A DNA stretch of 64,000 nt from Mobula hypostoma (lineage: Eukaryota): positions 56,360,001 to 56,424,000 of the forward strand of contig NC_086097.1 in assembly GCF_963921235.1 (NCBI RefSeq). The letters run 5' to 3'. The notes under the pieces are model-generated. The model did not search any database. It was given only the letters and a program-made list of their open reading frames with translations, and was not told where the DNA came from. Shown piece by piece: positions 16,275 to 57,949 of this stretch. A program made the translations under genes and the position numbers. Position 1 is the first letter of the stretch. Each line of letters starts with the position of its first letter.

Positions 16275-16528
16275 GATTTTGTGAGCTGCTGTTCTAGGCA
16301 TGACAGCTCACTTTTGTCAGACTCTGTGTTGTCTGATTCTGTTGCACTTTATGCATTTGTTCGGTTTTGTGTTTGGAACTTTTCATTCTGTGTGGTTTTT
16401 CTCTTTGATTGTGTTTTTTGTCTGACTTGCACATTCTCTCTATGTGACCTTGTCTGTGACATTTCCTGCAAACTTTTTCTTTGAACCAACAGTCATTTGC
16501 ATCATTGGAGGATTTACCACATTGATAA

Positions 16529-17174
16529 GACCGCTTTGCTGAACACCTACGCTCTGTCCGCCAGAGAAAGCAGGATCTCCCAGTGGCCACACATTTTAAT
16601 TCCACATCCCATTCCCATTCTGACATGTCTATCCACGGCCTCCTCCACTGTACAGATGAAGGTTGGAGGAACAACACCTTATATTCCGTCTGGGTAGCCT
16701 CCAACCTGATGGCATGAACATCGACTTCTCTAACTTCCGCTAATGCCCCACCTCCCCCTCGTACCTCATCTGTTATTTATTTTTATACACACATTCTTTC
16801 TCTCACTCTCCTTTTTCTCCCTCTTTCCCTCTGCATATACCTCTTGCCCATCCTCTGGGTCCCCCCCGCCTCCTTGTCTTTCTTCCCGGACCTCCTGTCC
16901 CATGATCCTCTCGTATCCCTTTTGCCAATCATCTGTCCAGCTCTTGGCTCCATCCCTCCCCCTCCTGTCTTCTCCTATCATTTTGGATCTCCCCCTCCCC
17001 CTCCAACTTTCAAATCCCTTACTCACTCTTCCTTCAGTTAGTCCTGACGAAGGGTCTCGGCCTGAAACCTCGACTGCACCTCTTCCTAGAGATGCTGCCT
17101 GGCCTGCTGCGTTCACCAGCAACTTTTATGTGTGTCGCTTGAATTTCCAGCATCTGTAGAATTCCTGTTGTTTG
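16529..17174 (+). mobile_element. Penelope-like element 3' fragment
   Basis: DRFAEHLRSVRQRKQDLPVATHFN; close to the reverse complement of 13306-13910. Flanked by cattgataa (16520) / cattggtaa (17175), a probable TSD. Confidence 0.92.
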
Positions 17175-35199: not shown

Positions 35200-35625
35200 T
35201 GATAATATTGCCTCTTAATTGATAATTTTACCAGAACCAGTTAACCAGCAACCAATTACCACTAACATATCACCTGTGAAACCAGAGGAGCCAACACACT
35301 TGACCACTGTTAAACCACCATCAAGAATGCTCACTGTGCCATCCCATGTCCAATCACCTGGCTGTATTTCTACCTCCAGCATACAGGGAGAGACTAATGA
35401 CCTGTATCATCAGTGGTGAGGACAACAAAGGTATGGTCAAAGGAGGTGGAGGAGTGCTTACAGGACTGCTTTGAATTGGTAAACTGAACAATATTCAGTG
35501 ACTCACCTTCGAATCTGAATAAATATTCCACAGTTAGACCTGTGTGTATGAGTGTGTGCCTTCAAGAACATACCAAACCAAAAACTGGGCATGAATCAGG
35601 AGATTCACAGTTTGCTGAGGGCTAC
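35200..35625 (+). mobile_element. Rex1/Babar fragment abutting the end of CCDC198 exon 6
   Basis: ggtcaaaggaggtggaggagtgcttacaggactgctttgaa and MNQEIHSLLRA, homologous to 19870-20100 (-). Confidence 0.75.
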
Positions 35626-35844
35626 ATCAAACATTAGGATTCACTCAGTCTTAGTTCTCATCCGTCTGTGCTGAGATTGACTGGCATCCATCCAGCAATC
35701 CAAGAACTGGTTACTGGAGCTGTTACTAAAAATGTCCCTCTGTCTAATGCTTACCAATTTGTTTAGGTAATCTAATATGGTTACCATCGCTGAAGTTATT
35801 AGTTATGGAGAACATCAATGAGGTCAAATCATTCTATGAAGTAC
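35622..35844 (-). pseudogene. CCDC198: CCDC198 terminal exon 6, decayed
   Basis: Acceptor ttttgtgttag. Phase-1 frame reads TS*NDLTSLMFSITNN (TAG 35836-35834). Another frame then reads ILDYLNK..DIFSNSSSNQFLDCWMD..RMRTKTE*ILMFD (TGA 35643-35641), matching the C-terminal RTxTERIPLFD motif. Confidence 0.75.
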
Positions 35845-36149
35845 CTAACACAAAATAATTATCCAAAATATTACCACTTTATTATTTCTTTAAAGTGATA
35901 CAATGGTGCTTCTAAATCTTTAAATAGAAGATTATAGATATCCAGTTGCATTATGTTGGAGAAATGCTCCATAGCCTGCATCAACAAAATGAAAATCAAG
36001 TCAATCACAGCTACTTTTTTTAGGTACTCACAACATTGCATTAGCATTGTCAGCATCAGCTAATGTAACTGAGCCTATGAATTAAAGTCCAGATACATGG
36101 TCACGGTGCGTTTATGAAACAGAACTTTTCTGTGGGACTGGAAACACCC

Positions 36150-37660
36150 CCTCCACAATCCTACTGCATTGTTAAGGACTTCTCCCATCCATCACACAAT
36201 TTATTTGACCTATTACAGTCAGGCAAAAGGTACCACAGTATAAGAACGAGGACTGTTAGGCTGGGTAACAGCTTCTTCTCCCAGGCTGTGAGACTTCTGA
36301 ACACCCTGCTACCACACAGTACCCATTATTTATGACAGCGACAGTAGTATTATACTGTTGTACAATGTACTTAACTATATGTCGTATACACACTTTATGT
36401 CAATTTGTACATCTACAGAATATTGTTTATATTATCTGTCAATATTATTGGGTTAACATTAATTTGTGTTGTATGTGATATATTGTATGTATTGTGTTTT
36501 GTACCTTGATCCCAGAGGAATGTTGTTTCATTTAGCTGTATGCATGTGTACAGTTTGAATGACAATAACTTCTACTTCCACCTTAGCATTGTGGCCAAGT
36601 CTACAGATGATATGAAGATAGGTGGAGAGGAAGGTTGTGTTGAGGAAGCAAGGAGTCTGCAGAAGTACTTGGACAAATTAGGAGAATAGGCAAAAAAAGT
36701 GTCAAATGGAATACAGTGTAGGGAAGTCTATGGTCATACACTTTGGTAGAAGAAATAAAGGCACAGACTATTTTCTAAATGGGGAAAAATTCAGAAATCA
36801 GAAGTACAAGGGGACTTGGCAGTCTTTGTGCAGGGTTCCTGCAGAATCAATTTGCCAGTAGTAAGGAAGGCAAAAGCAATGTTAGCATTCATTTCCAGAG
36901 GACTAGAATATAAACACAAGAATATAATGTGGAGGCTTTGGTCAGACCACGTTTGGAATATTGTGAGCAATTTTGGGCCCCATATCTAAGAAGGGAGGTA
37001 CTAACATTAGAGAGAGTCCAATGGTTTAGGAAAATGATCCCAGGAATGAATGGGTTAACATATGAGGAGCATTTAATGAGGAGTTTTGAAGAATGAGCAA
37101 CAAGGGAAAGGCTGAGCCCAGATTTATAGATCTCAATCTAGCCCATGGTCTTTCATCATCATTTACCAGAATTATAAATAAGATTCACAGAAGGGCCAAA
37201 TATTTTGATTCGTTTTCAGAATTGGAAAGAACTTATTTCTGCAAAGGTATATTAGGACCACCTAGGTCATGATCTCTTCTCGCTGCTGCCATCGGGATGA
37301 AGGTATAGGAGCTTCAGGACTCACTACCAGGTTCAGGAACAGTTATTACTCCACAACCATCAGGCTCTTGAACCAATGGGGAAAACTTCATCCAACTTCA
37401 CATGCCCCATCATTGAACTATTCTCTCAACCAATGGAATCACTTTCAAGGTCTCTTCATCTCATGTTCTTGATATTTATTGCTTTTTTTCCTCTTTTTTA
37501 TTTGCACAGTTTGTTCTCTTTCGCACATTGGTTGTTGTTCCGCCCTGTTGGGTACGGTCTTTCATTGATTCACTGAGTATGCCCGCAAGAAAACAAATCT
37601 CGGGGTTACATATGGTAGCATACAAGTATTTTGATAATAAATTTACTTTGAACTTTTGAA
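36150..37660 (+). mobile_element. Rex1 3' end (36150-36570), CR1 fragment (36590-37095), Rex1 3' end (37255-37660)
   Basis: SHPSHNLFDLLQSGKRY..RLGNSFF; CR1 QFWAPYL-like segment; TTRFRNSYYSTTIRLLN. Confidence 0.75.
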
Positions 37661-38578
37661 ATACTTTATTTCCGCAGCTGCGAAAGGAGTTAAAGAGGAT
37701 TGAATAACATTAAAAATTAAAACGATCAACTCTTGAGAAACAGTGGGTTACTGTAGGTGGCTCCAACTGAAGAACTAACATTAATATACGTCCAACTGGG
37801 CAAATGGTCTCAGGTACAGTAATTTCTCCTCTCTAGTTCTTCAACATCTTACACTATGTTCAAACAGTAATTTTCACATATTTTGCTGTCTTGACTAACG
37901 CCCACATCATGAACTACCTTCAGCACTAGTCTAATCAACTTAGTCCAATATTTGTCATTATGCCTCTGGTTATATTGCATGATTACCCATCTGATTCCAA
38001 AGCAAAAGTTCTATTTGGAGAAAGACTAGTAATTTTTAATAAAGAAAACCCAAGTAATAATTGATTTTTCCCTCATATTACCATTTTTTAAATTATTTAT
38101 ACTTATTTTAAACTAACATTTAATAGAACTAGAAATATTTTAGCAACAGCTTCCGTCATTCTCTCATGAGGATGACTATCTATTTACATTTAACACATTC
38201 ATTGCAAATTAATTTGAACATGGTTATTTATATGACTTTAGCTACATTTCAGTTGTTTGTGCTTGGAGAGGGAGAATAATATCAGTCCAAGCCAGCAAAT
38301 ATGTATAAACATGAAAATATGCTTTGTGCATTCCTGCAAAATGGATGATTTCTACAATGTAAATCCTCTAAAAAAAAAATTACCTATGCTGTCCAATTTT
38401 GAGTGGGAATGGGTAGAAAATTAACAACACTATCTAAAATACATTGGTGAAATACTCTGATGCTGTTAAGATTCTATGTATATCCAAGTACACATTAACC
38501 AAGTTCATTTTGATATGATCATATGACCAAGTAGCAATTTATTAGTTTCTTTGCATTCTATCCACAGGAATACTTTAC

Positions 38579-38767
38579 TTTCCATAATCTGCACTGAAAA
38601 TGTCCTTAAGTTCTGTTGCAATGTGGTGTTGATCTTCTTGATGATCATTAGTTTGACCATTTCCTCTTGATATATTGGCTCTCTGACCCTTTCTTTTCTG
38701 TTTATTATTTTTGAGTTTCCTTTTGGCAATTTATCATTAGTTCTGCTTGATCATGTCGACGAATTAT
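38579..38767 (-). pseudogene. CCDC198: CCDC198 exon 5, frameshifted
   Basis: Acceptor tttctctgaacag. Phase-0 reading IIRRHDQAELMINCQKETQK* stops at 38707-38705. The +1 frame continues NNKQKRKGQRANISRGNGQTNDHQED..., which resembles human INKQ...RNDDHD. Weak donor AAA|gtaaag. Confidence 0.7.
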
Positions 38768-39269
38768 CTGTTCAGAGAAATCAATAAACCATGATCACTG
38801 ACTGTTATGAAAAAATAAATAAACTTCTGAATGACCAAATGAATACAAACTAAGACACACATAAAGAGCATGTCTACTAAATTATGCGAAATGCCAATTA
38901 TGCTACATTGTTATACATGAATTGGCACAGGGTGATTCAGTATCACTGCAGTTATAATTATTCTCAACTTAGCTTTCTCTTTACCTTGTACCTTTCTCAG
39001 GAATTTGTAATTAAATTTATGATTCCAAGAAAAAGTTTAAATTTCTGGTACAGATGGTATATTACACATAGAAAAAACTAGGATGGACAAAATAAGGTTT
39101 CTAATTTATAAATAAGTATGAACAAACAGCAGATAACACAGCACTGGTACACAGTTAAGGCATTCCAATGTGCAGGAGAGAAAGAAAAACAGAACAAAAC
39201 TTTGGAACAAGTGAGAAACTAATGTTTAAAGAAATGACAGATTAAATAATTATTATTTTGAAAAAACTG

Positions 39270-40300
39270 AGAGCTTAGATTACAATAGCTTCAGACATGC
39301 TTGACAAACCTTTCAGATTTCTTTACAGAGAGAGCAAATCAAAGTAATGCTAAATTGTCCGATACACAAATTATTAAAAAGCTCATGAGAAAGGTTCTAC
39401 CTGTGGAGTCAGAGGAAAAGGGCTTGAACAGGCATCAAATAGACTTAAAATTAAGGAAAAACAAATAGTAGAAATGATTACGCAGATGGAAGTGAATGGA
39501 AAGTGAAAATTTGTCAGGTTCAGTATGGGACAACTAATAGATAATTAACATGATTTAAACATAGAATAACTAACTCAATTTCAAAATCTGCAAATGATAC
39601 CAAACTTGGCAAGTTTAGGGTGGAAGGATATGGAGGTTATTTAATAGTGAGAAAGAATGGAACATAATTCATAAAATCATTAGAGAAACTGTGAACTAAA
39701 CAGTTATCTGTCATATTAACAAAGATAAATGTGAAGTGATCCAATTTGTTAAGAAAAACAGAATATTTTGAAATAAAGCAGAATGGGCAATAATATATGA
39801 GCAGGAGCTCATGAAAATAATCTTTAAATTAATTTCACACGATTACTGCAAATCAGCAAAGCAATTAAAATATCAACAAAGAAACAGGATTAATGCATGA
39901 CTGCATGAAGTTTTAATATCATGAAGTTATGTTAAACTTGCGTAAGATCTGCAACAATTGCACAATTCTTGTCTCCAGATAGCTTAAAACACCGAGGAAA
40001 GTATAAAGTGATTAACAAAGATACATCAGAACTGAGAAGTTTCAGCCGTTGAGAAAGATTGATCAGGTTGGTCATTTTCATTAGAAAGAGATTGAGAGAC
40101 CAGATAGAGCTTCATTGGTGTGAATAATGGAATAGTGTGTAGGCGAAGAAAATGTTCCCACTTTTGGAAGAATCCAAAGACTGGAATTAAAGAGAGTTAT
40201 TTTAAATCCTGTGGGGAAAGTAAAGTTTTTTTTTAATTCAGTGGATAGACTGCTAAAAATCTGGACATTTTTGATGAAATATCTTAGATACTTTCAAAAG
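39270..40300 (+). mobile_element. Highly decayed CR1 RT remnant
   Basis: Traces of ISKFADDTKLG (caaaatctgcaaatgataccaaacttggc) and DKCEV (gataaatgtgaagtg). Confidence 0.55.
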
Positions 40301-40424
40301 AAAACTAAAGTATTACATTTCTGTAGCACATTTGTAATTTTAGGATGAACCAAAGTGATTTACAACTGATGAAGAACTTTTTAACTACATATTCAGTGAG
40401 ATATGAAAAAATACTGATTCATAA

Positions 40425-40770
40425 AGTCCTAGAGTCACAAAGTGATACAGTACAGAAAGGGGCCTTAAGTCCATGGCAAATGGCAACTATCTATTTAAAT
40501 CAATTCTATATTAATCACATTTTAACATTCTTCACACCTCCTCTCAACTCTCTCTCAATTCTACCACCCACTTGCATATTAGGAACTGTTTATGGTGACA
40601 AACCCACACTTCTTTGGCATATAGGAGGAAACCAGAGCACTCAGAGGAAAACCATGTGGTTACAGGGAGAATGTGCAAACTCTACACAGACAGCACCTAT
40701 GGTAAGGACTGAACTCTAGTCTCTGCTACTGTGACATTTGCCCTGCTAGCTGTATAACTACGCTGCCACC
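40425..40770 (-). mobile_element. V-domain/HE1-type SINE, old
   Basis: ggaggaaaccagagcactcagaggaaaaccatgtggttacagggagaatgtgcaaactctacacagacagcac is the reverse complement of the SINE body. Confidence 0.7.
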
Positions 40771-43171
40771 AAAGTGTTAACTAACTCCTTCCTTTTATTA
40801 CTTAATCATTTCAAATAGAACCAAGTGTACAATATTATTGAGCTACAAATGTTGTGGAATCCATCCTATTTACAATTCAGGACATCAAAGGACAATAATA
40901 TAGATGGAATATTTTGTGCATGACCAGTTTATTTTCTAGTCTGCAAGCCTTGTTGAATGTTAGTTTTAGACTTGACAAGCCTTTAATCAGGAACATAAGG
41001 AATAGGAAAAGGAGTAGATAATATTGTTCTTTGAGCAATCTGATAAAACCACAGCCCATCTGATCATAGACTCTATTCCTCATACTCCCAAAAATTGTTC
41101 TCCCTTGACTGGTGATAATGAAATAGTTAAGTTACTACACCACCAATTCTGAGGCCGGGACTGACATTCAAATATTAGCATTCAAATCCCACCAGGGCAG
41201 CTGTGGAATTTATTTTCAGTTAATAGTCTAGAACCTATTTTTGAAGTAACTGGTTATCAATGAAGATGAACATAAAGCCACCAAATTACTGTAAAAGCCC
41301 ATGGTGTTTTCTACAAAACTTGACCCCATGTAGGACTAAGCAGTAGGTTTGATCAATACCCCATCCAGCTCTCTAAGTATTAACTTACTCTATGGATAAT
41401 TCAAAAAAGTACATCACTGACAAAATGCAACACTACTTGGAAGTTTCTCTCCAACTGGCTTAATGCTCTAATGTGGGAATACATCACCTTTCCTTCATCA
41501 TCACTAGTTCCAAGTAGTAGAACTCCATTTGCAGCAACACTGAATGTTCGCCTGTTTAAGAAAGTGCCTCATCCCCACTTTTCTTGGGAGCACTTAGTTC
41601 AGGCAACAAATGCTGGTCTTGCCAGTGTACTCAGAAGCTGAACAATGAATTATAACAAAGTTGAAGGCACTAATTGATTCTATTTCCTTTAACAATTCTA
41701 CATTCACCAGACTAGGCACAGTGTGCAAAGTGAATATTCCACTACAGTGGGGTCCTCTGCTACCTCCAACGCTCTAAAACCATACCCGCGGATTGAACCC
41801 CAGTCACTGGAGCGGTGCACCAGCAACACTCTTTGCTGGGTTACTATTCCTCCTGACGCCACTGCCTCTTTTCAGGTTGCGAATGGTAACTCAAGAAGTT
41901 CCACGTCCATCGCCTTCTTTTCTGGTAGAATGTACCAGGCAAAGCAACCACAGGGATTCTCAAGGACTGTTCATGATGCAAAGAACTATCAATTGCACCC
42001 TCACTGCCTTGAGGACATGAAACAAAAACTCTGAGATCTAAAGAGGGCATAATTCCTCAAATGTCTATTTGGCTTATCACTTTTTTTAAGTCAGGAAAAT
42101 AATGCGGAACCCCTGATACCTAGTTAACTGCCATGACATGTTTATCATCTCACAGTCTTACGTGGCAGATATCACAGACACCAAATGCTGGCTCCTAGGA
42201 GACTGGAAAATCTGCTGAATATCCAGCTGCACAAGCTGGTCCAAAGAGACATAAAACTGAGAGCCATGCAATGATATAGGGCAGACAATATTTCTACTTC
42301 ATTTATTGTTCCAGCGACACCATGCTTAATAGTGAAAGGTTTATGTCTCATTTCATTACTTAGAGTCTTCCACAACATGATGATTGAGCAACTAAGCAAG
42401 CTCAGGCCTCACTAGGAAGCACAAGAGTAGGAGGAAAAAAAAGAGTTTGAAGCAACAGAAGATAGTGGGAGCAATGTCAGGACTTTCACATCACATAGGT
42501 TAAGGAAGAACAGTTAGCATAAAACTTTTAATGAAAGAAATACAAATCTAATTCCTGTTTAGTAAATAGAGCTATCAATGATTTCACACAGTTAGGTTTA
42601 GATACTGTTTTGGTAAGATGATGGGTGGCTTGTAATATTCAAATAAAACTTTGCCAGGCCACAATTTTCTCCTGCTCTAAAATTTAACCACCTCACATTC
42701 AACCTTTGCCAAATACCTTGCTGTTATTAATCTGTCAGTCACAATTCAATAGAAATGTATCTGGACCATCTAAATAATTGATGGGTCTAGAAAAGCGGAT
42801 CAAGGGCTTGTTAATCTGTGATGAACAACTCAGTTCCTGCTTCCCAAACCTCTCCCACCATAAATACACCATAGACTAATCTTTCACCACTTAGCTGGCT
42901 GAATGCAGAGCTTACACAATTTAAGGAGCTTGAGATTATTTGTGACAAAGCATTCCACCTGAAAGGCAAACTCTACACTAGATTAAATATTCCTCACTTC
43001 CACCTCTAGTTCACCATGGCTGTCATATATACGACATAAAAATGCACTGCCTCATGCTAATAAGTCTTCTTCTATAGCACCCAGCAAATTCATGACTTCT
43101 TTCATTTAGAAAGTTAAGGACAGCAATAGCTTGGGAATACCTCCACCTGCAAACACATTTCCAAGCCACAT

Positions 43172-46100
43172 AGAGTCATAGAGAAGCACAGCATAGAAAT
43201 AGGCCTTTTGGCCCATCTAGTCCACGCCAAAAACACTTAAACTGCCTACTCCCATCAACTTGCACCAGGACCATTGTCCTCCATACCCTTTCCATTCATG
43301 TCCCTACCCAAACTTCTCTTAAACATTGAAATCGAGTTCACATGCACCACTTGTGCTGGAAGCTCATTCCACACTCTCATGACCTTCTGAGTGAAGAAGT
43401 TTCTCTTCATGTTCCCCTTAAACTTTTCACTTTTCATCCTTAACCCATGATCTCTGATTGCAGTCCCACCCAACCGCAGTGGAAAAAGCCAGCTTGCACT
43501 TACTCTATCTATACTCTTCATAATTTTGTATACCTCTATCAAATCTACTCTCAGTCTTTACGTTCTAAGGAATACAGTCATAACCTATTCAATCTTTCCT
43601 TATAACTCAGGTCCTCCAGAGCCAGCAGATGCTTGTAAACTTTTTCTGTACTCTTTAAACCTTATGTACATCTTTCCTGTAGATAGGTGACCAAAACTGC
43701 ACACAATACTCTGAATTAGGCCTCACCAATGTCTTATACAACTTCAACATAACATCTTATCTCCTGTACCCAATATATTGATTTACGAAAGCCAATGTTT
43801 CAAAAGCTTTCTTTATGATCCTATCTACCTGTAACACCACTTTCAACAAATTATGGACCTGTATTCACAGATCCCTTTTTCCTACCATACTCCTCAGTCC
43901 CCTACCGTTCACTGTGTAAGATCTACCCTGGTTGGTCCTACTGAAGTGCAAAATCTTGCACTTCTCTGCATTAAATTCCACCTGCTATTTTTCCAGCTAA
44001 CGCAGATCCCTCTGCAAGCCATAGCCTTCCCCACTCTCCACGACACTCCCAATCTTGGTGTCATCCACAAATTTGCTGATCCAATTCATCACCTTATCAT
44101 CCGTATCATTGATATAGATGACAAACAACAATGGACCCAGCACTGATCCCTGCAGCACTCTAGTCATAGGCCTGGTCAGAGAAGCAACCATCTACTACCA
44201 CTCTCTGTCTTCTCCCACAAAGCCAGTGTCTAATCCAATTTACTACCTCATTTTGAATGCCAAACAACTGAACCTTCTTGACCAACCTCCCATGAGGGAC
44301 CTTCTCAAATGCGTTGCTAAAGTCCATGTAGACCACATCCACTGCCTTGCCTTCATCCACTTTCCTGGTAACTTCCTCGAAAAACCCTGATAAGATTGGT
44401 TAGACATGATCTGCCATGCACAAAGCCATGTTGACTATCCTTAATCAGTCCATATCTATCCAAATACTCACATATCTGATCCCTTAGAATACCTTCCAAT
44501 AACTTTCCCACAACTGATGTCAGACTCACTGGCCTATAATTTCCTAGTTTATGGTTACAGCCTTTTTTAAACAGCAGAGCATTATTGGCTATCCTCCAAT
44601 CCTCTGGTTCCTTTCCTGTTGCTAAAGATGATTTAAATATATCTGCAAGGGCCCTGTCAATTTTTGTACTGGCCTCCTGTGAGGTTCAAGGGAACACCTT
44701 GTCAGGCCCTGGGGATTCATCGACCCTAATTTGCCTCAGGATAGCAAACACCTCCTCCTCTGTAATCTGTACAGGGTCCATGAAGTTGATGTTGCTTTGC
44801 CTCACTTCTATAGACTCTGTGTCTGCCTCCTGAGTAAATACAGACACATAAAATTTATTTAAGTTCTCCCCCATCTGTTTTGGCTCCACACATGAATTAC
44901 AATTCTTAACTTTCAGGGGACCAATTTTGTCCTTTGCAATCTTTTTGCTCTTAACATATCTGTCGAAACCCTTAGGATTTTCCTACTCCTTGTCTGCTAA
45001 AGCACCTCATGCCTTCTTTTAGCCCTCCCGATTTCTTTTTTAAGTGTTGTCTTGCATTCCTTATATTCCATGAGCACCTCATTTGTTCCTACCTGCCTAT
45101 ACCTACTATGCACCTCCTTTTTTCTCTTAACCAGAGCTTCAATATCTCTTGAAAACCAAGGTCCCCTCCACTTGTTATCATTATCTTTTATTATGACAGG
45201 AATGTACAAGCTTTTTACTCTCAAATTTGAAGGTCTCCCACTAACCAAGTACACCTTTGCCAGAAATAGCCTGTCCCAATCTTCACTTGCCAGCTTATTT
45301 TTGATACCATCAAAATTGGCCTTTCTCCAATTTAGAATCTCAACCGGTGGAGCAGACCTATTTGCATATTTACTTTGAAACTAATGGCATTGTGGTCACT
45401 AGGTGCAAAGTGTTCCCTACACAAACTTCTGTCATTTGCCCTGTTTCATTCCCTAATAGCAAATCCAGTATCACACACTCTCTCATTGGGACTTCTATGT
45501 ACTGATGGAGGAAACTTTCCTGAACACATTTGACAAACTCCATCCCATCTAGTCCTTTTACAGTATGGGATTCCCAGTCAATATGTGGAAAGTTAAAATC
45601 ACGTACTATAACAACCTCATGTTTCTTGCAACAGTCTGCAATCTCTCTACAAATTTGTTCTTCTAAATCCCACAGACTGTTGGGTGGTCATAACACCTCA
45701 CAAGATAAGTTCTTCAGTCTGTCCTGATGGAGCACTGCTGTGACAATTTCACTGACTATTAAAGCCACCCCTCCTCCTTTAAGCCTTCCCACTCTGTCAA
45801 ATCTAAAACAACAGAACTCTGGAATATTAAGCTGCCAGTCCTGCCTTTCCTGCAACCAAATCTCACTAATGGCTACAATGTCATAATTCCAGGTGTTGAT
45901 CCAGGCTGTGATCTCATCCACCTTTCCTACAATACTTCTTACATTGAAATATAAGCAGCTCAAGACATTAGTTGAAACATGCTCAACCTTTTGATTCCTG
46001 ACTTTGTCTGATATCTTAACAACATCTGTCTCCGCAACCTCTTCACTAACTGGTTTCAATCCCCATGCAACTCTAGTTTAAACCACACCGTGCAGCATTA

Positions 46101-47222
46101 GCAAACCTTCCTGCTAGGTTTGTAGTCCCCCTCCAGTTCAGGTGCAAACTATATCTTCTGTACAGGTCGTATCTTCCCTGGAAAAGAGCCCAATGATCCA
46201 AAAATCTTATTCCCTCCCTCCTAAACCAACTCCTTAGCCATGTGTTAAACTGTATAGCCTTCCTAATTCTGGCCTCACTGGCAAGTGGCATGGGTAGCAA
46301 TTCTGAGATCACATCCTGCCCTTTAACTTGGCACCTAACTCACTGAACTCCCTTTGCAGAAACTCGTCACACGTCCTACCCATGCCATTAGTACCTACAT
46401 GGACCACGAACTCTGGGTGTTCATCTTCACATTTAAGAATGCTGAGGACTCGATCCAAGATGTCCCAAAACCCTAGCACCCAAGAGGCAACATACCTTTC
46501 GGGACTCAGCAGGCCAAGCAGCATCTATGGAAAAGAGTAAACAGTGAAAAGGGTGAACAGATGAAGGGTTTTCGGCTGAGACCGTTCATCTGGACTGGTT
46601 GAAGGGTCTCAGCCTGAAACGTCAACTGTTTACTCTTTGCCATAGATGCTGCCTGGTCTACTGAGTTCCTCCAGCATCTTGTGTGTGTTGCTTGGATTTC
46701 CAGCATCTGCAGATTTTCTTGTGTTTGTAATACCTACTGGGAAACTCATTCTCGCCCACAGAACCTCCTTTCTGTTCCCCTCACTAACAAGTACCCTGTC
46801 ACCACAGCGTGCCTCTTCTCCCCCCTTCTCTTCTGAGTCACATAGCCAGATTCAGTGCAAAAGACCCTCCTGCTGTGACATTCCTCTGCCAGGTCATCCC
46901 CTGCAACAGTATCCAAAGTGATAAACCAATTATTGAGGGGGAAGGCCACAGGGGTTCTCTGCACTGGCTCCTGAACCCCTTCCTGACTGTCACCCATTTT
47001 CCTGTGTCCTGCACCTTGTGTGTAACTACCTCTCGATATGTCCTGTCTATCAGCTTCCCTTCAACCCCTTCAGCCTCCCAAATGATCTAGAGTTCCTCAA
47101 TGTGGATTGTCAAAAGCTGCAGCTGGATACACTTCTCACAGTTGTAGTCATCAGGGACTCTGGAGGTCTCCCTGCCTTCCCACATCCCAAAAGAGGATCA
47201 TTTCACTATCCTGCCTGACATC
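43172..47222 (-). mobile_element. Near full-length degenerate CR1 LINE (ORF1 esterase and ORF2)
   Basis: ORF1 SGNH-like VVHVGTN and DHWALFQGR..LHLN; EN YFNVRSI..DIVAISEIWL; RT VDVVYMDFSNAFEKVPH, QGSVLGPLLF, KFVDDTK; tail at about 43175. Confidence 0.95.
46503..46728. mobile_element. Penelope-derived inverted-repeat element nested in CR1 ORF1
   Basis: actcagcaggccaagcagcatctatggaaaagagtaaacag is inverted to ctgtttactctttgccatagatgctgcctggtctactgagt. Two degenerate hammerhead halves face each other at 46565-46628. Confidence 0.8.
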
Positions 47223-47595
47223 TGTCAATGAGAACAAATCTCAATGTTTCTTCATTGTCATTGGGTTAAAGCCCTGGAGTTCAGTACTTCCTTATTTCAT
47301 AACATGGAATGCAGAGTGGAAGAAGACAATTTATCGAAGCTTCTTAATAAAATTTTGCTTGACCAGTAATGAACTGCCAAACATACTAATAATACCATCA
47401 GTTAGTACATAGTTACAAATATTTATACTGGAAAGAGCAAATAACGATAAATTTTAGGCTTTGAGGTACTCCCAATGACTCTATAGTGCAAATGAGAGAT
47501 CTGGTCTGCCATTTTGCTCTCTACCTGCCGCAGAAAAAAATATTTTTAATATGAAAATATTTACAACAGCTATGTGATGATTAAGAGAAATTGAC

Positions 47596-47688
47596 CTCTT
47601 CCTGCCTTATCTTTTCATACTGCATCTTCTCGATTTGTTGTCTTCGCCTGGAAAATTGCTTTGCAATTTCTGCTTGTATTTCTTGTGC
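47596..47688 (-). CDS. CCDC198: CCDC198 coding exon 4 (93 nt, phase 0 to 0; NAGNAG acceptor allows +Gln from 47691)
   Basis: Acceptor ttttaagcag, donor GAG|gtcaat. Encodes AQEIQAEIAKQFSRRRQQIEKMQYEKIRQEE, coiled-coil-like (cf. human RQYLHKMQ). Confidence 0.8.
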
Positions 47689-49015
47689 CTGCTTAAAATA
47701 AGTAGTTTCAGATTGTGACAGAACTTTGCACTATAGTATAGAAAATAATAAGTACAGAAAATGATGTGAAATCATTTCTGAACATATAATATAATTTCTC
47801 AGTAATATGATAAAATGTATTGGACAATAAGGCTTTCTATTTTATAAGCTGAATATCTGTAATTGATATTTTAAAAGTTAAGGTGTTGGAAATATCAGTA
47901 CATTATTCACAAACCACATGAATTATCAATGTAGAAGGGCAATTGGAGATCTACAAGTTCTCTTATTGAAGCATTAATTTTTTGTGAATCCAAGATTTCT
48001 TTCCACACATTGATCCCTCCTTCTCACTGGTTGAACATGATTATCTTTTTCATTATCCTAGTATTTTACCAGGATATCTGTGGGGGTAAACATTATCCAA
48101 AGATTAATGGATCTGAAATTATCTATGGAGTCACCCTTTGTAGGTAGAACTTAAAATCCAGTAATGAGACTGTATTTAACATAGGCAAATCCATCTGATG
48201 ATTTCTTTTGTGTATAGATAATTACCTTTGATAAAGAAAGGATTGTTAACTATATTTACTGTATGGTCTGACTCATGAGACTATATTACTCCGGTCTTTG
48301 TAGAGAAACTTCTTTTTCCAATTTTTATTTTGTTCCGGATGGGGACAAGTAGCAAATTTAGAAAAGAGAGCATCTTAAAAACTATATTTTTTTCCACTAA
48401 TCTTTCACAATTGATATTTAGTTTACAATCATTTCATCCTCTATGAGAATTATATTGTATCTTCAATGAATAAGGCTATTGATATTTTTGCTTTCAAAGA
48501 AAATGGATGTAATTAAGAAATCCAATCTCAAAACCAACAATGAAATTGTTCAATACCATACAAAACAAACTGAAATTGATCATTTGTCACGAAAGTCAAA
48601 GATACTAAGTTTAGATACATGGCATGCAAGTTTTAGAATACTAGTAAATGCCCCAGAATTCCACTTATTAAATATGAAAATAGACGCAAAGCATACCACT
48701 TTCTGAGAACGAGCTGTTCTGATGCAGTTTTCTCATCAATTCCTTATGAGGTGAATTGCTTCCATGACTAATCTGCGCATGAACTTCATTCACTAAAAGG
48801 GCCTCCTGAGGTTTTGACAAGCGCCAGATAAATATTACATCTTCCTTCCAACGTGAGAACACTCCCCCACACTCTCATGTACATTTCCCAAATCTATCCT
48901 ATTTGTGCTTTCTTTCACAAAATTTCTATTAGTATTCACTTTTGGGCAATTCTATGTCACAAGACAGTATCTTTCAGGAACTTTACTGCGACTGAATCAA
49001 TTTTTTTAAAGAAAT

Positions 49016-49400
49016 CTAGGAGCATGTTGACCATAGTCTTGGAAGGGTGCCCAGGTTTCATCCTCCCATGCTTGGGTTCCCATATGATGACTGGGCTGGC
49101 AGGTAGCTCGGGGTGGCGTAGACAGTGCTCCGCTAGTTGCAGTCTTCTCGCCTCGATTTTAGTGGTGAGCATCAGTAGGTTGTTATAGAGCTCGACGTTC
49201 GTCATGTGCTGTTGCCAACTCACATCAAGAGCCATCCGGAGCATTCGTGTATAGCAACCATCTAGAGGCTTTCGCATAGTCTTGGTGAGTGTCCACGTCT
49301 CGCATCCATACGTGAAAATGGACTCTGTGCTGCTATGAAGATCCTTTTTTTAAGCCCTCTGGTCAGGTTCAGCTTCCAGATTTCCTTCATGTCATTCTTG
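49016..49400 (-). mobile_element. RTE/RTEX-type LINE fragment, same family as 15971-16274
   Basis: LDGCYTRMLRMALDVSWQQHMTNVELY..RRLQLAEHCLRHPELPAS. Confidence 0.88.
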
Positions 49401-50868
49401 CGGCTTGAGAGAGGGGAAATCTTTGCATCCACATTTGGATCTAGATCCTTATTGTAGATAACTGGTATACAATTAATGCTTTCTGCCATTCTGATATTCC
49501 ATAATAATCTCAAAATATTTTTGAGAAATTTTAAAGCACATCTTTTCAGTTTCCACTAAAACTCAATTTAACAGTCACATCATTATGCTGCACACTATTA
49601 GCAATGTTCTATTTCCCTTCCATATATTTAATGCTCTTCATTTCTAACAAAAATAATTAAAAACCTATTGTATGCAGGTTGTCCGCTTTGAGGATTCTAT
49701 AGGATGTGACACAAGGAAGGAAGGGATGTAAAATCCTACAGAATTTAATCATAAATATTGTTTGCAGTAAAAAACATTGTATTGAAAGAAAGAGTGTTAT
49801 AGAACATTCTAATATAAAAAGCTGGTAGCCTGAGTTTGAAATATGCCCATATCCTGTGAACATGTTTTGTTAGACTCTGTCACTGACACAGAAAAAGTTT
49901 GGACAAGATATAGGATTACAACACTCTGGCTTGGAAATTGCTTGCTCTGCTAAAAGCATAAGTATTTTTGCCAAGAGCTTGCCAGTGTAAAAATACCAAA
50001 TTCTGATAAACAACTTGATTTTTTTTCCTGCAGTACACAGCCTGCGAAGGAAAATTTGGCAAGTCTAGAACCAGAACCAGGAGGTTCAAAGGGATTGGAG
50101 AGCCATTGGTCAAGAGTCAATCAGAATCTGATGGGCAATGGAGTGAAATCAAAACCTAGGGAACAATGCGGTAATTAAAGATCAAGGCACAGAAACTTAT
50201 GGGTGTAGGAAAAACAGTACAGGCAGCTGGAGTTGGAAGTCATGGATAGAGTAATTAGACATGAAATCTCAGGGGTAGCTGGAGACTGGGCCCTAGTGAA
50301 GAGTGGAAAAATAGATACAAGAGTGGGTCACCAGATCAGAAACCTCCAGGCATTGGGAGAGCAGGGTTCTTGATAAAAATTAAAGGAGCCCTTCTTGTTA
50401 TGAATTCCTTGCACTTCTTCAAAACAATGAGGCAGGCACTCTGTTGAAACATGCTGTTCTGTGAGTGACCAACAGAAAAAAAAGTACGCTGAAAAATGAG
50501 ACACAATTTCCCAGATAATTCTGAAAAAGAGCACTGCATGGGGAATGACATCATTCATTGCATGACTGATAGGGAAATCATTTTATTGATTGAAGAGTGA
50601 TTCTCATCCATAAGCAGTCAGTCAAATCTCCGGAACAGCACAATTTGTCCCAGAATATATAACAACTGCATTCCACTCTTTTCTAATTTATTAGAAATGG
50701 ATAATTTTCAGATGCCTGCCATTGTAAAAGATAAAATGGCACTTATCTATATTTGCAGACCGAATGTCTACATTGCCTGGCCTTTGACATAGCTTAATCA
50801 AATTATCTCCATAGGTCAAACATCATTACAGGATACTTGATATCTTCATATGATGTGGAATACTTCAC

Positions 50869-50952
50869 CTGTACTTTGCGTGCATTTGCTGCTCGTTTTT
50901 CCAGAAGTTTCTCTGATGTGATCACTGTGCAACTATTAATGGGTTCAAGCCC
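50869..50952 (-). CDS. CCDC198: CCDC198 coding exon 3 (84 nt, phase 0 to 0)
   Basis: Acceptor ttttacatttcag, donor CAG|gtgaag. Encodes GLEPINSCTVITSEKLLEKRAANARKVQ (cf. human KLEPIDLPRVITSGRLL). Confidence 0.9.
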
Positions 50953-51057
50953 CTGAAATGTAAAATAATAAAACAAATGCTCATGTTCATAGCTTTTCTT
51001 CTGCACAGCTTATGTTTAAAATAGTGCATTGTTTCTTTGTGTGGAGGCTACCTCAGT

Positions 51058-51238
51058 ACATACATTTAAGACAAGGCTGGATAGATTTTTGCATTGTAGG
51101 GGATTTAAAGGTTATGGGGGAAAGGCAGGTCAGTGGAGATGAGTCCATGGTCAGATCAACCATGATCTTATTGAATGGTGGAGCAGACTCAACGGACCGG
51201 ATGGCCTACTCCTGCTCTTCTTTCTTATGTTCTTATGT
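51058..51238 (+). mobile_element. CR1 3' tail
   Basis: ttgaatggtggagcagactc..ggcctactcctgctc..ttcttatgttcttatg. Confidence 0.8.
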
Positions 51239-52287
51239 AAGTGATGCTAGCAAAATAGCGGCCTGTATTTAATCATTAAATGTCACTTCTATGGAACTTG
51301 TAAGCAGTGTATTTGTTGTCCTTTGTTGCTGGACAAAGAAAATTTCGAATTCTGATGGGAATATTAGTTTACAGATTTAGCCCCCAGTTTAAAAAAATGT
51401 TTTCTCAAGATATATTGATTCTATTATGGTCATTTTTGTATGATTTCTTTTGTATTATTTCTTCCAGTCATCGCTGGGCTCCCTGATGAGAATTCCCCTA
51501 TTTGGGATTTTGGAACAAAGAATCGGATCACTGATAGGATACCAATCAGTTCAGGATATAGGACAGGACAGTCTGCCCACTTCAAAACATGAGATTCTGA
51601 ATCCAGTGGTGACCTGACCTCACTTTCTCAGGTAAATAATGCGGAGCAGATGAAAGAGATATCAGAACATTCCTCATATGCAAACACAAACTTCAAATAC
51701 CTTGGCACTACGGAAATGCATACCACACACAAATGAAATCAGTACCTAGTATTACAGCAAACATGAGGAAATCTGCAGTATTACAGGTTAATTTTATGTG
51801 GAACTATTCTTAACTAGAAATGGAAAAGTTATCAAGTATTGAAACCAGTGTAGAATGTCCATTCACTTTCTATTGAGATTCGAGACACACCCTTTTCCCT
51901 TTCACATGGGAAGGGGCCTTCCAAGCTTGAATTCTTGTGTACTATTGCTGTTGAATATTATGGCACTGATTTTACCAATGTCTCCTTTCCGCATGCTGGG
52001 CCAACCCATCAAGTGTCCTCATTTGAACAACTGGTTCTTCAAAACAAAGAGTTTTTACTGAATAAACTAATGAGAATTTGTAAAATAGGATGACTTTGTG
52101 TTAAAAAGGAGCTTAAAAAACAGTTTGGAAGCCCAAAGTTTCAAAAGAATAGAAGTCTTTTCACCTTGGATAGTGGAATTCTGGTGGATGGTATTTCTAA
52201 ATCTGGTAACAGGAACAGTGTTGACATTCAAGGCATAATAAGCCACATAAGCAATATGCAGAATTTATTATATATAGACATTGTTGA

Positions 52288-52810
52288 CAGAATCAGAATC
52301 ATATTTAATATCACTGGCCTATGTTGTGAAATTTGTTAACTTAGCATCAGTGTAATGTAATACATGAAAATATAGAAAATATAAATAAATCAGTTACATA
52401 AAGTCTATGTATGTATATTAAATAGTTAAATTAAAAATAGTACAAAAACAGAAATAATAAATGTGAGGTAGAGTTCATGGGTTCAATGTCCATTTAGGAA
52501 TTGGGTGGCTGAGGGGAAGAAATTGTTCCTGAATTGCTGAGTGTGTGCCTTCAGGATTATGTACTTCCTTCCTGATGGTAACAATGAGAAGAGGGCATGT
52601 CCTGGGTGATGGGGGTCCTTAATAATGGACACCACCTTTCTGAGGCACCGCTCCTTGAAGATGTCTTGGATACTACAGAGGCTAGTACCCAAGATGGAGC
52701 TGACTAATTTTACAATTTTCTGTAGCTTCTTTCAATCCTGTGCAGTAGCCTCCTCCCTGCACCCCCCCCCGCCATACCAGACAGTGATGCAACCTTTCAG
52801 AATGCTGTCC
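52288..52810 (-). mobile_element. Rex1/Babar 3' end
   Basis: IIKDPHHPGHALFSLLPSGRKY; cagaat tail units at about 52290. Confidence 0.85.
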
Positions 52811-53582
52811 ACAGATACACCTCCTGTGCTCCTTGACGGGGGTTTCCACCATGCGTTCTGCCAGGCCGATATATGCTGCTCTGCATTCACAAAGAATCCT
52901 GTAAATACCAAGCGTCCTGAGTCCCAGCTCATCTTTGACCCACATAAGCTGCGATTTGAGCTTCCCTTCGGGTTTGTGGATGGTATTAATTTAGTATTTC
53001 TTCAGGATCCTGGCAATCCTTCCAGTGACTGTAGAATTGTAGGGAATACCGGCAGTAGTGGCGGGTTCCTCCTCGTTGTTAGTTTTCCTGATTTTTCTGT
53101 CAGTACTTTTAAGGGTCTGATTGATTTCTTTCACCTTGTAGCCATTCTATAGGAATGTAATCAATCAAGGAGCACAGGAGGTGTATCTGTTTGGATTACC
53201 CAGAGAAATCGGCAGTGGCAGAACATTGTATTCACAATGGCCATAGGATTGACTTCAAATGCACAAAACTACTGTGCCACACCAATGGGTTTTGGGACTG
53301 CCTGGTGAAGGAAGCCATTGAAATAAAAGTACAGGAAAAGAATTTTAAGAAAGATGAAGGTCTCACTCCAAGTAAGAACTGGAATTTAATTGTAAACAAG
53401 GTAGGACAGTAGGAACCTGATTGAATGAGGACTAACTGATCAGGAGAGATGGACGACAGGGGTATAAATACCACCGGACCAGACAGCCCTAGGCATCATC
53501 CCTGATGAAGATGGCAGAATGTGGCATCAAAACACTGGTTAAAATCAATAGCTGTACCTGGCAGGAAGCCCGAGAAGAGTTT
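52811..53582. mobile_element. Second Penelope family (GIY-YIG region) with internal inversion
   Basis: Minus 52811-53160 encodes GIYRILCECRAAYIG..KEHRRCI. Plus 53165-53412 encodes KEHRRCICLDYPEKSAVAEHC..KEAIEIK. Degenerate hammerhead core CTGATGA at 53502. Confidence 0.88.
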
Positions 53583-53724
53583 AGAGATAAACATAGAAAA
53601 CCTACAGCACAATACAGGCCCTTCAGCCTACAAAGCTGTGCCGAACGTGTTCTTACTTTAGAAATTACCTAGGGTTACCCATAGCACTCTATTTTTCTGA
53701 GCTCAATGTACCATAAAGAAGGAT

Positions 53725-55697
53725 AGTCAGAATCAGAATTAGGTTTATTATCATCGGCATGTGACGTGAAATTTGTTAACTTAGCAGCAGCAGTTCAATG
53801 CAGTACATAATCTAGCAGAGAAAAAATAAAAATAAAACATAATAAAGAAACAAGTAAATCAATTATGTATATTGAATAGATTATTTAAAAAATGTGCAAA
53901 AACAGAAATACAGTACATTAAAAAAGTGAGGTAGTGCTCAAGGGTTCAATGTCCATTTAGGAATCGGATGGCAGAGGGGAAGAAGCTGTTCCTGAATTGC
54001 TGAGTGTGTGCCTTCAGGCTTCTGTATCTCCTACCTGATGGTTACATGAGAAAAGTGCATGCCCTGGGTGCTGGATGTCTTTAATAATGGTCACTGCCTT
54101 TCTGAGACACCACTTCCTAAAGATGTCCTGGGTACTTTGTAGGCTAGTACCCAAGATGGAGCTGACTAGGTTTACAACCTTCTGCAGCTTCTTTCTGTCC
54201 TGTGCAGCAGCCTCTCCATACCAGAGAGTGATGCAGCCCATCAGAATGCTCTCCACGTGTCACAATGGCAGGGGATTGGGAGCAAGGGTGGACCCAAATG
54301 CAAGACACATCTTGTGAGGTTACTTAGGTTTAGTTTATTGTACAATACCAGGAGAGCAAGACAGAAGCAGGAATAGTGAACTGGACGAGGACTGAGGACT
54401 ATGACTAGGCTAGGACCAAGGGTCTGGGCTTGGACTCAGAATCAGCTCCCAGAACTAGAGTAGACATGAAGAGGCTAGAGTATGGACTCCGAGCCCTAGA
54501 CTGGGCAAGGACCCAGTACCTGGGTCTTGCCTCGGGCTCAGACCCCAGAACCAGGCAAGGACATGACATGGGCTAGGGAGAGGAGGAACATGGGAGCACA
54601 GAGCCTCAGTCTCGGGGAGCAGGTACATGGAACCATGGACACATACACAGAACAGAGAGCCGGGACCCCTCCTTTGGTACAGGACATAGGGCCAGGACTT
54701 GCACACAGAACAGAGACCCCTCCTTGGGTACAGGACATAGGGCCAGGACACATGACTCATGACCCTCCACAGGGCAATGGCAAGACAGCCAGACTTACCC
54801 CACAGAGGCAAGGACAAGACAAGACCAACACGAATGAACACCAGACAGTACCTATCTAGATCCAGTGATGGAACTAGACCAAAGTGCAGGTGGGGGCTGC
54901 AGACGAGGGCTAGAGGCAAGAGGGGCAGAGAAGGGATTCAGACAAGGGGGTAGGACAGGAATCACAGACTGCCAGGCCCAGGACATGACTCAGAACTGGA
55001 AGCCGCCAGGGCCAGGACTTGACATGATACTTAAACGCCGCCAGGACAGGACGTGGACGTGGTACTTGAATGCCGCTGGAGCCAGGACTTGACTTGAAGC
55101 CTCCGGGTAGTGCCGAGCTCTCGACTCGGCCTGGGAACAGTAGACAGCGGCTCTTGATTCTCTCCGACGGGTTAACTGACGGACCCACCTCAGTAAGGAA
55201 ACTTTGCAGGCTCTCTTTGGCGAGGTAACTTGACAAGGTTGCTCCAGTGAGGAAAGGCAAACTACCGGCACTCGCTTCAGGCGGAGACTAAGCTTACTCC
55301 GGCCAGATGACATTGGCACGCCGTGACTTTGCAGACACTCCCACGCCGAACGGCTGAAAGCCGGAGACTATAAACTACCGGTTCAGCCGAGCGTTAATTG
55401 CTTCTAATCACCAAAGTCAAGGGACACGGGAAAACAGGGAATCAATGGTCCGGATCGTAACATAAACAAGGTAAATTTAAAGGGATCCCGATCTGGACCA
55501 TGACACCACGGTGCAACTATAGAAGTTTTTGAGCGTATTTGTTGACATGCCAAATAGTTTCAAACTCCTAATAAAGTATAGCCGCTGTCTTGCCTTCTTT
55601 ATGGCTACATCAATATGCTGGGACCTGGTTAGATCCTCAGAGATCTTGACACCCAGGAACTTGAAACTGCTCACTCTCTCTACTTCTGATCCCCCTA
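53725..55697 (-). mobile_element. Rex1/Babar 3' end split by a solo LTR
   Basis: SSFKFLGVKISEDL..KKARQRLYF..FYSCTV(V) | ESILMGCITLWYG is continuous across the insertion. Confidence 0.88.
54258..55505. mobile_element. Solo LTR (1248 bp) with 5-bp TSD
   Basis: Termini TGTCA...TGACA. TSD ccacg at 54253-54257 and 55506-55510. Internal tandem duplications; CpG-rich right half. Confidence 0.85.
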
Positions 55698-56416
55698 CGA
55701 GCTGTGTAAAATATTGAGAGACAACTAACTTTGGACCTGGGCCACCATCAATCTAAAAAGGAGTTAGGATTCTTTTTATTGGTTTTACAGTGCCTACATT
55801 TTGCAAACCTGAAGATCTGGATAGATCTGTGCTGATGCTGTCCAGTCACTAAAAGACTGGTCAGTAACAGTGACAATAGCAAAAGTTATTGAGAGTGTAT
55901 TCAATTGTTTTATAATTTATGAAAATAAATTGCTCGCTAGTAAAATATTCCATAACAAATCTTCGGAAACCTACCCAGTGATGGCTTTACAGCAGATACA
56001 GTTAGGCACAGAGATGTCAAATATCCACTCAAGTCAACCGCTAGTAAAAAGAACTTGGAATATTTTGATGTCATGAAGACTAACGTCCTAAAATTGAAGT
56101 TTTCCACTGAAGAACATATTTAGAACATTTTTAATCAGAAATGAAAATTAGGACAATAAGGTTAGGCTCTTCTGTCAGTGAAGTATTAGGTGTATGGATT
56201 AAAAATCAGAGTGAGAATAGGAAGATATTTAATAAATGTAACACTGACTTTTATTTCAATCTTTCTTTTTAAGAACTGAATTGATACAAAACTAGTCGAT
56301 GTCATTTCAATCTGGCCCTGGCTAATGTGCAAAACTTCCTTGGTTTGGTGGCTTTACAATTGTTATGGAGGTCACCCAAGGTATCGAAAACACTTAACCC
56401 AGATTATTTCACTCAC

Positions 56417-56499
56417 CTGAAATCTGCGAGGAGGGTGTTTTTTTATTATACTGGTTTCCCCGTCGACCGGATTAATATCAAACGAGATGGCCGTGGGTA
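56417..56499 (-). CDS. CCDC198: CCDC198 coding exon 2 (83 nt, phase 1 to 0)
   Basis: Acceptor tttttag, donor CAG|gtgagt. Encodes VPTAISFDINPVDGETSIIKKHPPRRFQ, the best-conserved motif. Confidence 0.93.
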
Positions 56500-56984
56500 C
56501 TAAAAAGATAGAGGCAATTGGCAAAGAGGCAAACTTATCTTTTTGGAATCTCCTGTCAAACATTAATTACACAGAAATTATGATTTCTCGGATAATGGCT
56601 AAGAAAACCACATCAATTTGCAAATCTGTTTAATTATTAATAGATTTGTACGCACCCCAAGTAAATATTAACTAATTTGTATGTTCCGCGATCCAGGGGA
56701 GATTGTACTAAACTGGAAAAAGACGTCAACCGAGCCCGCATGTCCCCTGCATGCACAAAGTAGTTATTTGCCGAACAGTTTGATCGTCAGTAATACAATA
56801 CAAAAAAATAAATTACAACTAACTAACTGTGGTCTTCACACTTTTCTTTCACCTTCTGTAAGCGTTTCGTTGGAAGTGAACTTCAATGTCTGAGTTTAAG
56901 AACCGGCAGGTACAGTGGTGCGTCCGCTGGGACAAGCTACTGGCAGTTGCGAGAGGTTACTCAGCGTGTCAGGAGCCCACTCAC

Positions 56985-57198
56985 CTTGTTGGTGGCTGGG
57001 CAGCACGCCGGCAACGTGCCTCTCCTTCAGCGGAGGAAGGTCGCTTCTCCTCGGCTTTGAAATTTCCAGCGGCTCGCCGTGTTTCAGACGCTCCCCGTCC
57101 GCCCCGCCGGGTAATTGGTCCAAACCTCCCGTCTCGTTTGGGGGCACCGGCGTCACCTTGATCACCTTGTGCGAGACTTTAGACGAGCATAAGCCCAT
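56985..57198 (-). CDS. CCDC198: CCDC198 coding exon 1 (214 nt, ends phase 1)
   Basis: ATG at 57198 in strong Kozak context (aagATGG). Encodes MGLCSSKVSHKVIKVTPVPP...LPPLKERHVAGVLPSHQQ. Donor AAG|gtgagt. Lies in the CpG island. Confidence 0.9.
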
Positions 57199-57949
57199 CT
57201 TCTCACGGACTGACTAAAACGTCGGTTCCGGAGCACCTCCCGCATCACCTGGTGAGTTTCCGTGGGGTGTGTGGGCATGTACGTTGGGTTTAGTTATCCA
57301 GAACCGCTTGAGGGTTGAAGTGCAATGAGCCGGCGGGAATTCCGCAACGCCGACCGAGTTGCCCCGGCAACGCCGCGCCAGCGGTTGTGGCCCGTCACAA
57401 AGTAACCAGCAACTTCGCGTGTCACCGCCAGGTGAACGGGCGACACGGTCACGCCTGCCTGCACCCGGGCTTAACCCCAGCACCCAGTAAAGCATCTCGT
57501 CTCTCTTTGCTATTGCAAAATAGAGACTATATTAGTACAGATTTTGTTTTATCCTGCCAACAGTTAACTACCAAATGGCATGTCCCGCACTGCCTGCGTG
57601 CCTCCGCCTTCTCCAGAGCGAGGATTTATTGATCATATTGAACTGTCGCTCTTTCTGAGGAGCTCTTTTCTCTTAATGCATCAAACATCTGAGTGGGCAG
57701 TAAACGCCCATCAGTCAGAGTACCAGACAGACCTACAACCCGTCATTAACAAAATACCAGCTGCAAGGTCCACCTGTTAATGCTGAGGAAACAGGAACGG
57801 ATACAAAAGGACCATGACCCCTTTGTACCTCTTTTACCCACCATCTTTCTAGTTTTCTTGATGGCTTTATCTAATAAATTCTACTGATTAGTCTTGAACA
57901 TTGTAATTAATTCAGCACCCACAATATGTTGGGAGTATTTTAGATTTTC

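Follow-up and report, generated by a model that had tools for sequence, protein, structure and literature searches.

The window examined here is a 64,000-nucleotide stretch of DNA from a devil ray, Mobula hypostoma (NC_086097.1, positions 56,360,001 to 56,424,000). It holds, on the minus strand (C1:56.396-56.417 Mb), a gene of the CCDC198/FAME family, whose features are collected in Table 1. In a search with exon 1 (80 candidates), the RefSeq M. hypostoma "FAME-like isoform X2" (178 amino acids) was the best of 4 proteins, and exons 1 to 5 spliced from the window reproduce the RefSeq 178-residue protein letter for letter. The protein matches the DUF4619 profile (PF15398) with an E value of 1.8e-23 and 83.9 bits against a curated cut-off of 31.7; the match runs over its residues 1-176 and over positions 1-178 of the 296 in the profile, while FAME of the sawfish Pristis (311 amino acids) covers positions 1-296. 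A tblastn search with the Pristis protein matched every exon, in order, in the window. Given these ordered matches and the strong profile match, the resemblance is not due to chance, and the identification as CCDC198/FAME that a sequence-only reading of this DNA had proposed stands, with the expected similarity recovered by both routes. Compared with FAME/CCDC198/C14orf105 as described previously (PMC10226981), the Mobula gene is of the same family, is single copy, and keeps Gly2, but its protein lacks profile positions 179-296, including the conserved C-terminal motif.

In the 3.48-Gb assembly the Pristis protein has 7 matches, every one of them at this locus, and the DUF4619 profile finds 1 match in the genome. 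Neither a second FAME copy nor an intact alternative exon 5 or 6, for which the earlier reading had left room, was found genome-wide; in these searches the best candidates were scored, and at that depth the genome holds no intact paralog. EXOC5 exons lie about 190 kb from FAME on the same, minus strand (C1:56.18-56.20 Mb), and we take EXOC5 to be the gene beside CCDC198 in the human order. With EXOC5 nearby and a sole matching locus, the gene is single copy and in the orthologous position. SLC35F4 has also been named as a CCDC198 neighbor (PMC10226981); neither it nor NAA30 was located, the SLC35F profile matching other SLC35F loci only.

Table 1. Features of the M. hypostoma FAME gene, as positions in the window
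Feature	Position	Strand	Remarks
CpG island over promoter and exon 1	56900..57500	.	GC 0.61, CpG observed/expected 0.96 (window 0.27)
Exon 1, coding part	56985..57198	-	Starts MGLCSSK
Exon 2	56417..56499	-	Conserved VPxxISFD...SIIKxHPPRR block
Exon 3	50869..50952	-	tblastn match
Exon 4	47596..47688	-	31 codons, phase 0/0
Old dispersed repeat in intron 4, neutral yardstick	47036..47224	-	Orthologous to last exon of Hypanus isoform X1
Exon 5, still-coding part	38705..38767	-	20 codons plus TAA
A5 run, shifts the frame by +1 against Pristis, Narcine, skates, and sharks	38708..38712	-	
Remainder of exon 5, no longer translated, old frame open	38583..38704	-	
Dead exon 5 splice donor GAAAGT (GT>GA at +2)	38577..38582	-	
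Read-through of intron 5, likely 3' untranslated region	37631..38582	-	Contig set X10, record 37631-38769, 0 differences
Exon 6 relic	35626..35844	-	tblastn of Pristis protein and lesion listing
Dispersed repeat abutting the cut end of exon 6	35253..35628	.	73-77% identical to most listed copies

Exons 1 to 4 join in phase into 474 nt, that is, 158 codons with no stop, as the sequence-only reading had described, and the CpG island that it noted at the 5' end is retained. The myristoylation pattern Gly2, Ser6, and Lys7 is kept in the sequence, and the start MGLCSSK is common to the 4 myliobatiform species compared (M. hypostoma, M. birostris, Hypanus sabinus, and Hemitrygon akajei, from annotated proteins). 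All four carry Cys4 (57187-57189 in the window) where other batoids have Gly4; a cysteine beside the myristoyl glycine is presumably a possible palmitoylation site.

The 3' half carries several disabling lesions. In exon 5, the A5 run contains one extra A, in keeping with the 1-nt excess previously suspected there, and this creates a TAA at 38707-38705: Mobula reads CAA AAA TAA where other batoids have Q-N-N. One base further on, the homologous frame picks up again and stays open for 41 codons. The splice donor of exon 5 is dead, with a cryptic GT 4 nt beyond it; the other four FAME donors in the window start with GT. Exon 6 has a TAG at a conserved Trp (35836-35834), a second TAG at a Gln (35746-35744), a 2-nt loss at about 35743-35741, and a TGA at a conserved Arg (35643-35641), and its last 7 codons (EFFDxEL) are gone. 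The first TAG and the TGA had been recognized earlier; the frame change then placed near 35780 is in fact the 2-nt loss, some 38 nt away, and the dead donor, the second TAG, and the missing last codons had escaped notice. As a result, the C-terminal motif DEFFDxE(L) is out of frame, broken, and without its final 7 codons. A degenerate search allowing up to 3 mismatches found no displaced EFFDxEL codons in 35660-30000, and no convincing target-site duplication was found at the exon 6 end, which may have been lost either by insertion or by deletion.

The same protein end recurs among relatives. Isoforms ending in NCQKETQK make up 7 of the 9 annotated in myliobatiforms and come from all 4 species; of the remaining two, one ends in exon 4 and the other in a repeat-derived exon. 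Each of the 16 further chondrichthyan species in the alignment, among them Pristis, Narcine, and three skates, has an isoform with the terminal motif. The shared end was read from proteins rather than DNA, and its simplest reading is that Mobula and Dasyatidae likely have the frameshift in common. Thus, the lineage-specific loss of the C terminus, or of the whole gene, that had been proposed from the window holds up in the comparison across rays and sharks, in a lineage wider than Mobula. The truncation, which removed the last 40% of FAME, is likely shared by devil rays and whiptail stingrays. Placed on the relationships of batoids, the frameshift would have arisen after the sawfish split and before the split of Mobula from dasyatids. 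Splits inside Dasyatidae have been dated to the Late Cretaceous or to about 50 million years ago (PMC6446806), and therefore about 50 million years is a minimum age for the truncation. Given that Potamotrygonidae are sister to Dasyatidae (PMC12428016), freshwater stingrays would be expected to share the frameshift.

Exon 4 is absent from all three dasyatid models (P0003, P0009, and P0010, from Hypanus and Hemitrygon), which is possibly a second step of decay, and it is skipped in one M. birostris isoform (P0008, X4). The product is accordingly 178 amino acids long in Mobula and 145 in dasyatids without exon 4. Outside the myliobatiforms, skates (P0017, P0018, and P0047) are missing some 23 residues where exon 6 begins, and one Leucoraja FAME isoform has a frameshifted end. 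Judging from these proteins, the FAME tail may be loosely constrained across batoids.

We compared the lesions in four of the 20 contig sets that contain this region. X10 comes from the same organism as the window (A), from another sample and study; X5 is from organism B, 1.5% diverged; X19 from organism F, 6.8% diverged; and X18 from organism E. X10 matches 37631-38769 (one record) and 35559-35761 with 0 differences, and it covers the A run, the TAA, and the donor in exon 5 and, in exon 6, the second TAG, the 2-nt loss, and the TGA, though not the TAG at 35836-35834. In the X19 exon 5 contig all 12 gap letters are placed at 38370 and 38513, so the A5 run has the same length there. Over 37634-38850, X5 shows 14 substitutions, none at the stop or donor, and a single 1-nt gap whose place is not given; across exon 6 no letters are inserted in it, and none of the 11 substitutions listed out of 14 falls at a stop. 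X18 has no left-out letter over 38552-38850, with 2 unplaced inserted letters there and 4 over exon 6, and thus shows its lesion state only in part. A Leu-to-Arg change in the RLMRTK motif of the dead exon 6 (35663) is not present in organisms B and E, so the exon 6 relic is still drifting within the lineage.

Two explanations would leave FAME intact. Assembly or base-calling errors in homopolymers could have made the lesions; the frameshift does sit in an A run, the X5 gap is unplaced, and X10 does not reach the TAG at 35836-35834. Against this, four separately assembled species share the protein end, X10 and X19 share the length of the A run where sense codons and four A's would have pointed to error, and X18 leaves out no letter over the site. 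For exon 5 and three of the exon 6 lesions, error is ruled out by X10, X19, and the four-species protein end; as an account of the lesions in general, we find it hardly credible, in line with the earlier view that one assembly error could hardly explain them. The lesions are real and old, and as disabling changes they are confirmed in independent data. Alternatively, a full-length FAME could still arise from another copy of the gene, through use of an alternative exon 5 or 6, or by splicing around the lesions. Batoids have many annotated isoforms, the cryptic GT offers a nearby donor, and the genome searches scored best candidates only. This explanation is nonetheless very unlikely: every Pristis match and the single DUF4619 match lie in this locus, exon 6 has three stops, a frameshift, and no terminal motif, and none of the 9 annotated isoforms reaches exon 6.

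The shortened gene is likely still transcribed. The exon 5 contigs of X10 and X19 start from the acceptor (38769 and 38771, respectively), where DNA runs continue past, and both cross the dead donor unspliced. X19 aligns for 4 nt past the acceptor before it departs from the genome, a pattern that would fit an exon 3-5 join as in dasyatid proteins. Candidate poly(A) signals (AATAAA) lie at 38543, 37670, 37502, 37480, 36205, and 35883. The pieces of X10 end at 35888 and those of X19 at 35878, next to the last of these, where DNA runs continue, which weakly hints at its use. Among the pieces listed, no X19 piece lies on exon 6, the X19 pieces running to 35878. Contig depth in X10 drops past 37631, a measure that cannot rank parts of the gene. 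From the TAA it is 122 nt downstream to the old exon 5-6 junction. Stops more than 50-55 nt before the last junction make a message a target of nonsense-mediated decay; hence a spliced exon 5-6 message would be a decay target, and read-through removes the junction. Exon 5 is thus probably the last exon, and with no junction downstream its stop would escape junction-dependent decay.

An exon-5-terminal form appears to have existed before the stingray lesions. Amblyraja isoform X2 (XP_032883098.1) ends in DYGK, and Narcine X2 (XP_069773023.1) appears to pass the same donor, which suggests, from the protein ends, that such a form is the older feature. These skate and Narcine isoforms resemble the Mobula form in that the donor appears to be read through and exon 6 omitted. 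They differ in being minor forms beside a full-length protein, whereas in Mobula the donor is mutated and read-through is likely the sole route; moreover, the Mobula form is further shortened by the frameshift.

As for what was lost, the AlphaFold model of Pristis FAME (mean predicted local distance difference test score 57.5) is disordered except for one confident helix at residues 122-207. By this model Mobula would keep the helix to about residue 189, and dasyatids would also lose residues 139-169 (Pristis numbering). The tail motif R-T-K/R-T-E-R-I-x-x-F-D-E-F-F-D, kept from sharks to mammals, is lost in Mobula. No sequence match for FAME was found in the Protein Data Bank, and an Atlas search returned FAME itself as its sole match (0.77, a lead-level score). 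The end of the tail resembles an FFAT (VAP-binding) motif, and we considered whether it might be one, taking as the core criterion EFFDAxE with A, C, S, or T at position 5. The FFAT consensus is EFFDA-E, in which Ser is tolerated and Glu at position 5 abolishes targeting (PMC3261905). FAME fails at this position, its EFFD being followed by Q, R, K, H, or E. VAPA, VAPB, and MOSPD2 had 0 matches in the supplements of PMC10226981 that were searched; FNBP1L also had 0, hence this result is uninformative.

Mammalian FAME is myristoylated at Gly2 and located at the plasma membrane, and it binds FTH1 and FNBP1L in two-hybrid screens (PMC10226981). It is enriched in kidney and, in mice, has been tied to energy use, ferritin, and the excretion of albumin; mice lacking the gene are viable and fertile, and there it is non-essential (PMC10226981). 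FAME has also been placed at cilia in kidney cells (10.1101/2024.03.21.586066). In the excerpted text of these two sources no binding region is mapped within FAME, Gly2 alone having an assigned role. The former reports no FAME pseudogenization in the amniote clades studied, and cartilaginous fish are not treated in its main text as excerpted.

Constraint on the kept half was assessed at the protein level only, with the intron 4 repeat as a neutral yardstick. In this repeat 53 of 62 residues match P0010, and its best other genomic copies are 76-80% identical. The repeat has a good splice acceptor; it is an alternative last exon in Hypanus X1 and carries 2 stops in Mobula. Between Mobula and Hypanus, 21 of 143 residues differ in the kept exons and 9 of 62 in the repeat, a ratio of 1.01 (confidence interval, 0.49-2.08), and the post-split branches measure 0.066-0.103 against a neutral 0.081 per side. 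The ratio of nonsynonymous to synonymous substitution rates (dN/dS) of amniote FAME is 0.28-0.42 (PMC10226981); at these values 6-9 differences would be expected where 21 are seen (P 0.0003, yardstick error ignored). Over the same exons, variable columns keep clear of the conserved ones in 4 of 5 control clades but not in myliobatiforms (p 0.29); when exon 1 is left out, only 3 of the 5 pass. Exons 2 and 3 have 1 change shared by the four species and 12 that arose after the split (a post hoc count), and near-invariant residues were altered after the split as well, R84T and L79H in Mobula and E96G in dasyatids. Three-taxon rate tests of the kept against the dead half were not significant with any of 5 outgroups. 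Taken together, the protein-level rates lean to loss in progress.

On balance, we lean toward a single-copy devil ray FAME that was cut at codon 178 and is in staged gene loss or slow decay. The exon 5 donor would have failed in the common ancestor of Mobula and Dasyatidae, fixing the exon-5-terminal form and freeing exon 6 to decay. The extra A in exon 5 would then have shortened the long helix. Around or after the split of Mobula from dasyatids, constraint on the kept half would have relaxed to near neutral, and dasyatids would have dropped exon 4. The short protein is probably still made and is predicted to be myristoylated at the membrane, where it likely does little.

Several observations weigh against such slow decay. 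X10 and X19 are taken as RNA on a guess by the tool, none of the 20 contig sets being on record as such, and the donor letter in organism F is not listed. The order of events has weak support: 5 internal lesions in exon 6 and 0 in the dead part of exon 5 (p 0.12) give a weak hint that exon 6 died before the exon 5 tail. The yardstick has only 62 codons, and in skates, where the gene is retained in full, the conserved-column test fails as well (p 0.33). Exons 1-3 and the coding part of exon 5 are open in four species, with both indels in frame; the neutral chance of an open frame is 0.018-0.13, by assumed indel rate. Exon 4 of Mobula differs from Pristis at 1 of 31 residues, and the exon 2-4 core branch (0.066 in Mobula, 0.062 in Pristis) is not accelerated, while that of the dead half is (0.199 against 0.057), though the count tests give no significance (p 0.08-0.59). 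In M. hypostoma 1 of 38 invariant columns has changed, in a test that is powerless, the dead half itself showing a change in no more than 1 of 17. Lastly, the CpG island is kept. These points could speak for a working truncated protein, in which the N-terminal part and most of the helix are still needed and the acidic tail is dispensable, an alternative that we regard as possible though less likely. Its case draws on a frame that 4 species have kept open for over 50 million years, the kept Gly2, Ser6, and Lys7, the slow exon 4 and core, the retained island and apparent transcription, and a helix predicted to persist to about residue 189. The high rate would then reflect a disordered, fast-evolving protein or positive selection, functional amniote FAME being fast anyway by its dN/dS. 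Opposed to it are the excess of differences over the 6-9 expected when the yardstick is accepted as it stands (the lower bound of the ratio being 0.49), the changes at near-invariant residues, and the absence of exon 4, 31 helix residues, from dasyatid models. A staged history, with constraint on the core along the stem and relaxation afterwards, would fit both sets of observations, the counts being small. A variant of the working protein, in which the donor mutation fixed the read-through isoform and shielded the later frameshift, giving a short FAME with Cys4 as a possible second lipid anchor and a changed kidney role, seems rather improbable on the sequences at hand. If it were true, the stingray clade, which includes euryhaline and freshwater stingrays, would map which half of FAME serves what.

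Unitary pseudogenes and lineage-specific gene loss are established concepts, and nothing in the process proposed here is unusual in itself. The Mobula gene resembles unitary pseudogenes in being a single-copy gene with clade-shared disabling lesions and further decay; it differs in that its 5' 60% remains open in frame, retains the CpG island, and apparently yields transcripts. Our searches of the open-access literature found no report of FAME loss, for the gene or for the clade, and none of the CCDC198 papers listed there deals with fish by its title; RefSeq already carries the truncated proteins under the name "FAME-like". FAME here is a gene caught between truncation and loss: loss of a tail that sharks and mammals alike conserve is evidently possible, and this truncation is older than about 50 million years. 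If slow loss is the right reading, these rays would be a natural partial knockout of a little-understood gene. The natural deletion alleles of Mobula and dasyatids are usable to map the ferritin and FNBP1L interactions.

The window also contains other repeats; over its 64,000 nt Rfam gave 0 matches. Nested retroelement remains occupy 13300-17150, with inverted similar copies at about 13300-13900 and 16720-17150. Between these copies lie a 312-codon open frame (13853-14788) without a Pfam match, which looks Penelope-like, and a reverse transcriptase fragment (14626-15171; RVT_1, E 1e-6). Remains of the long interspersed nuclear element type lie directly upstream of the FAME promoter (57944-60200), with an RVT_1 match at 58999-59613. 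Finally, 52288-54214 contains two repeat copies of about 460 nt, 1.46 kb apart and 83-87% identical.

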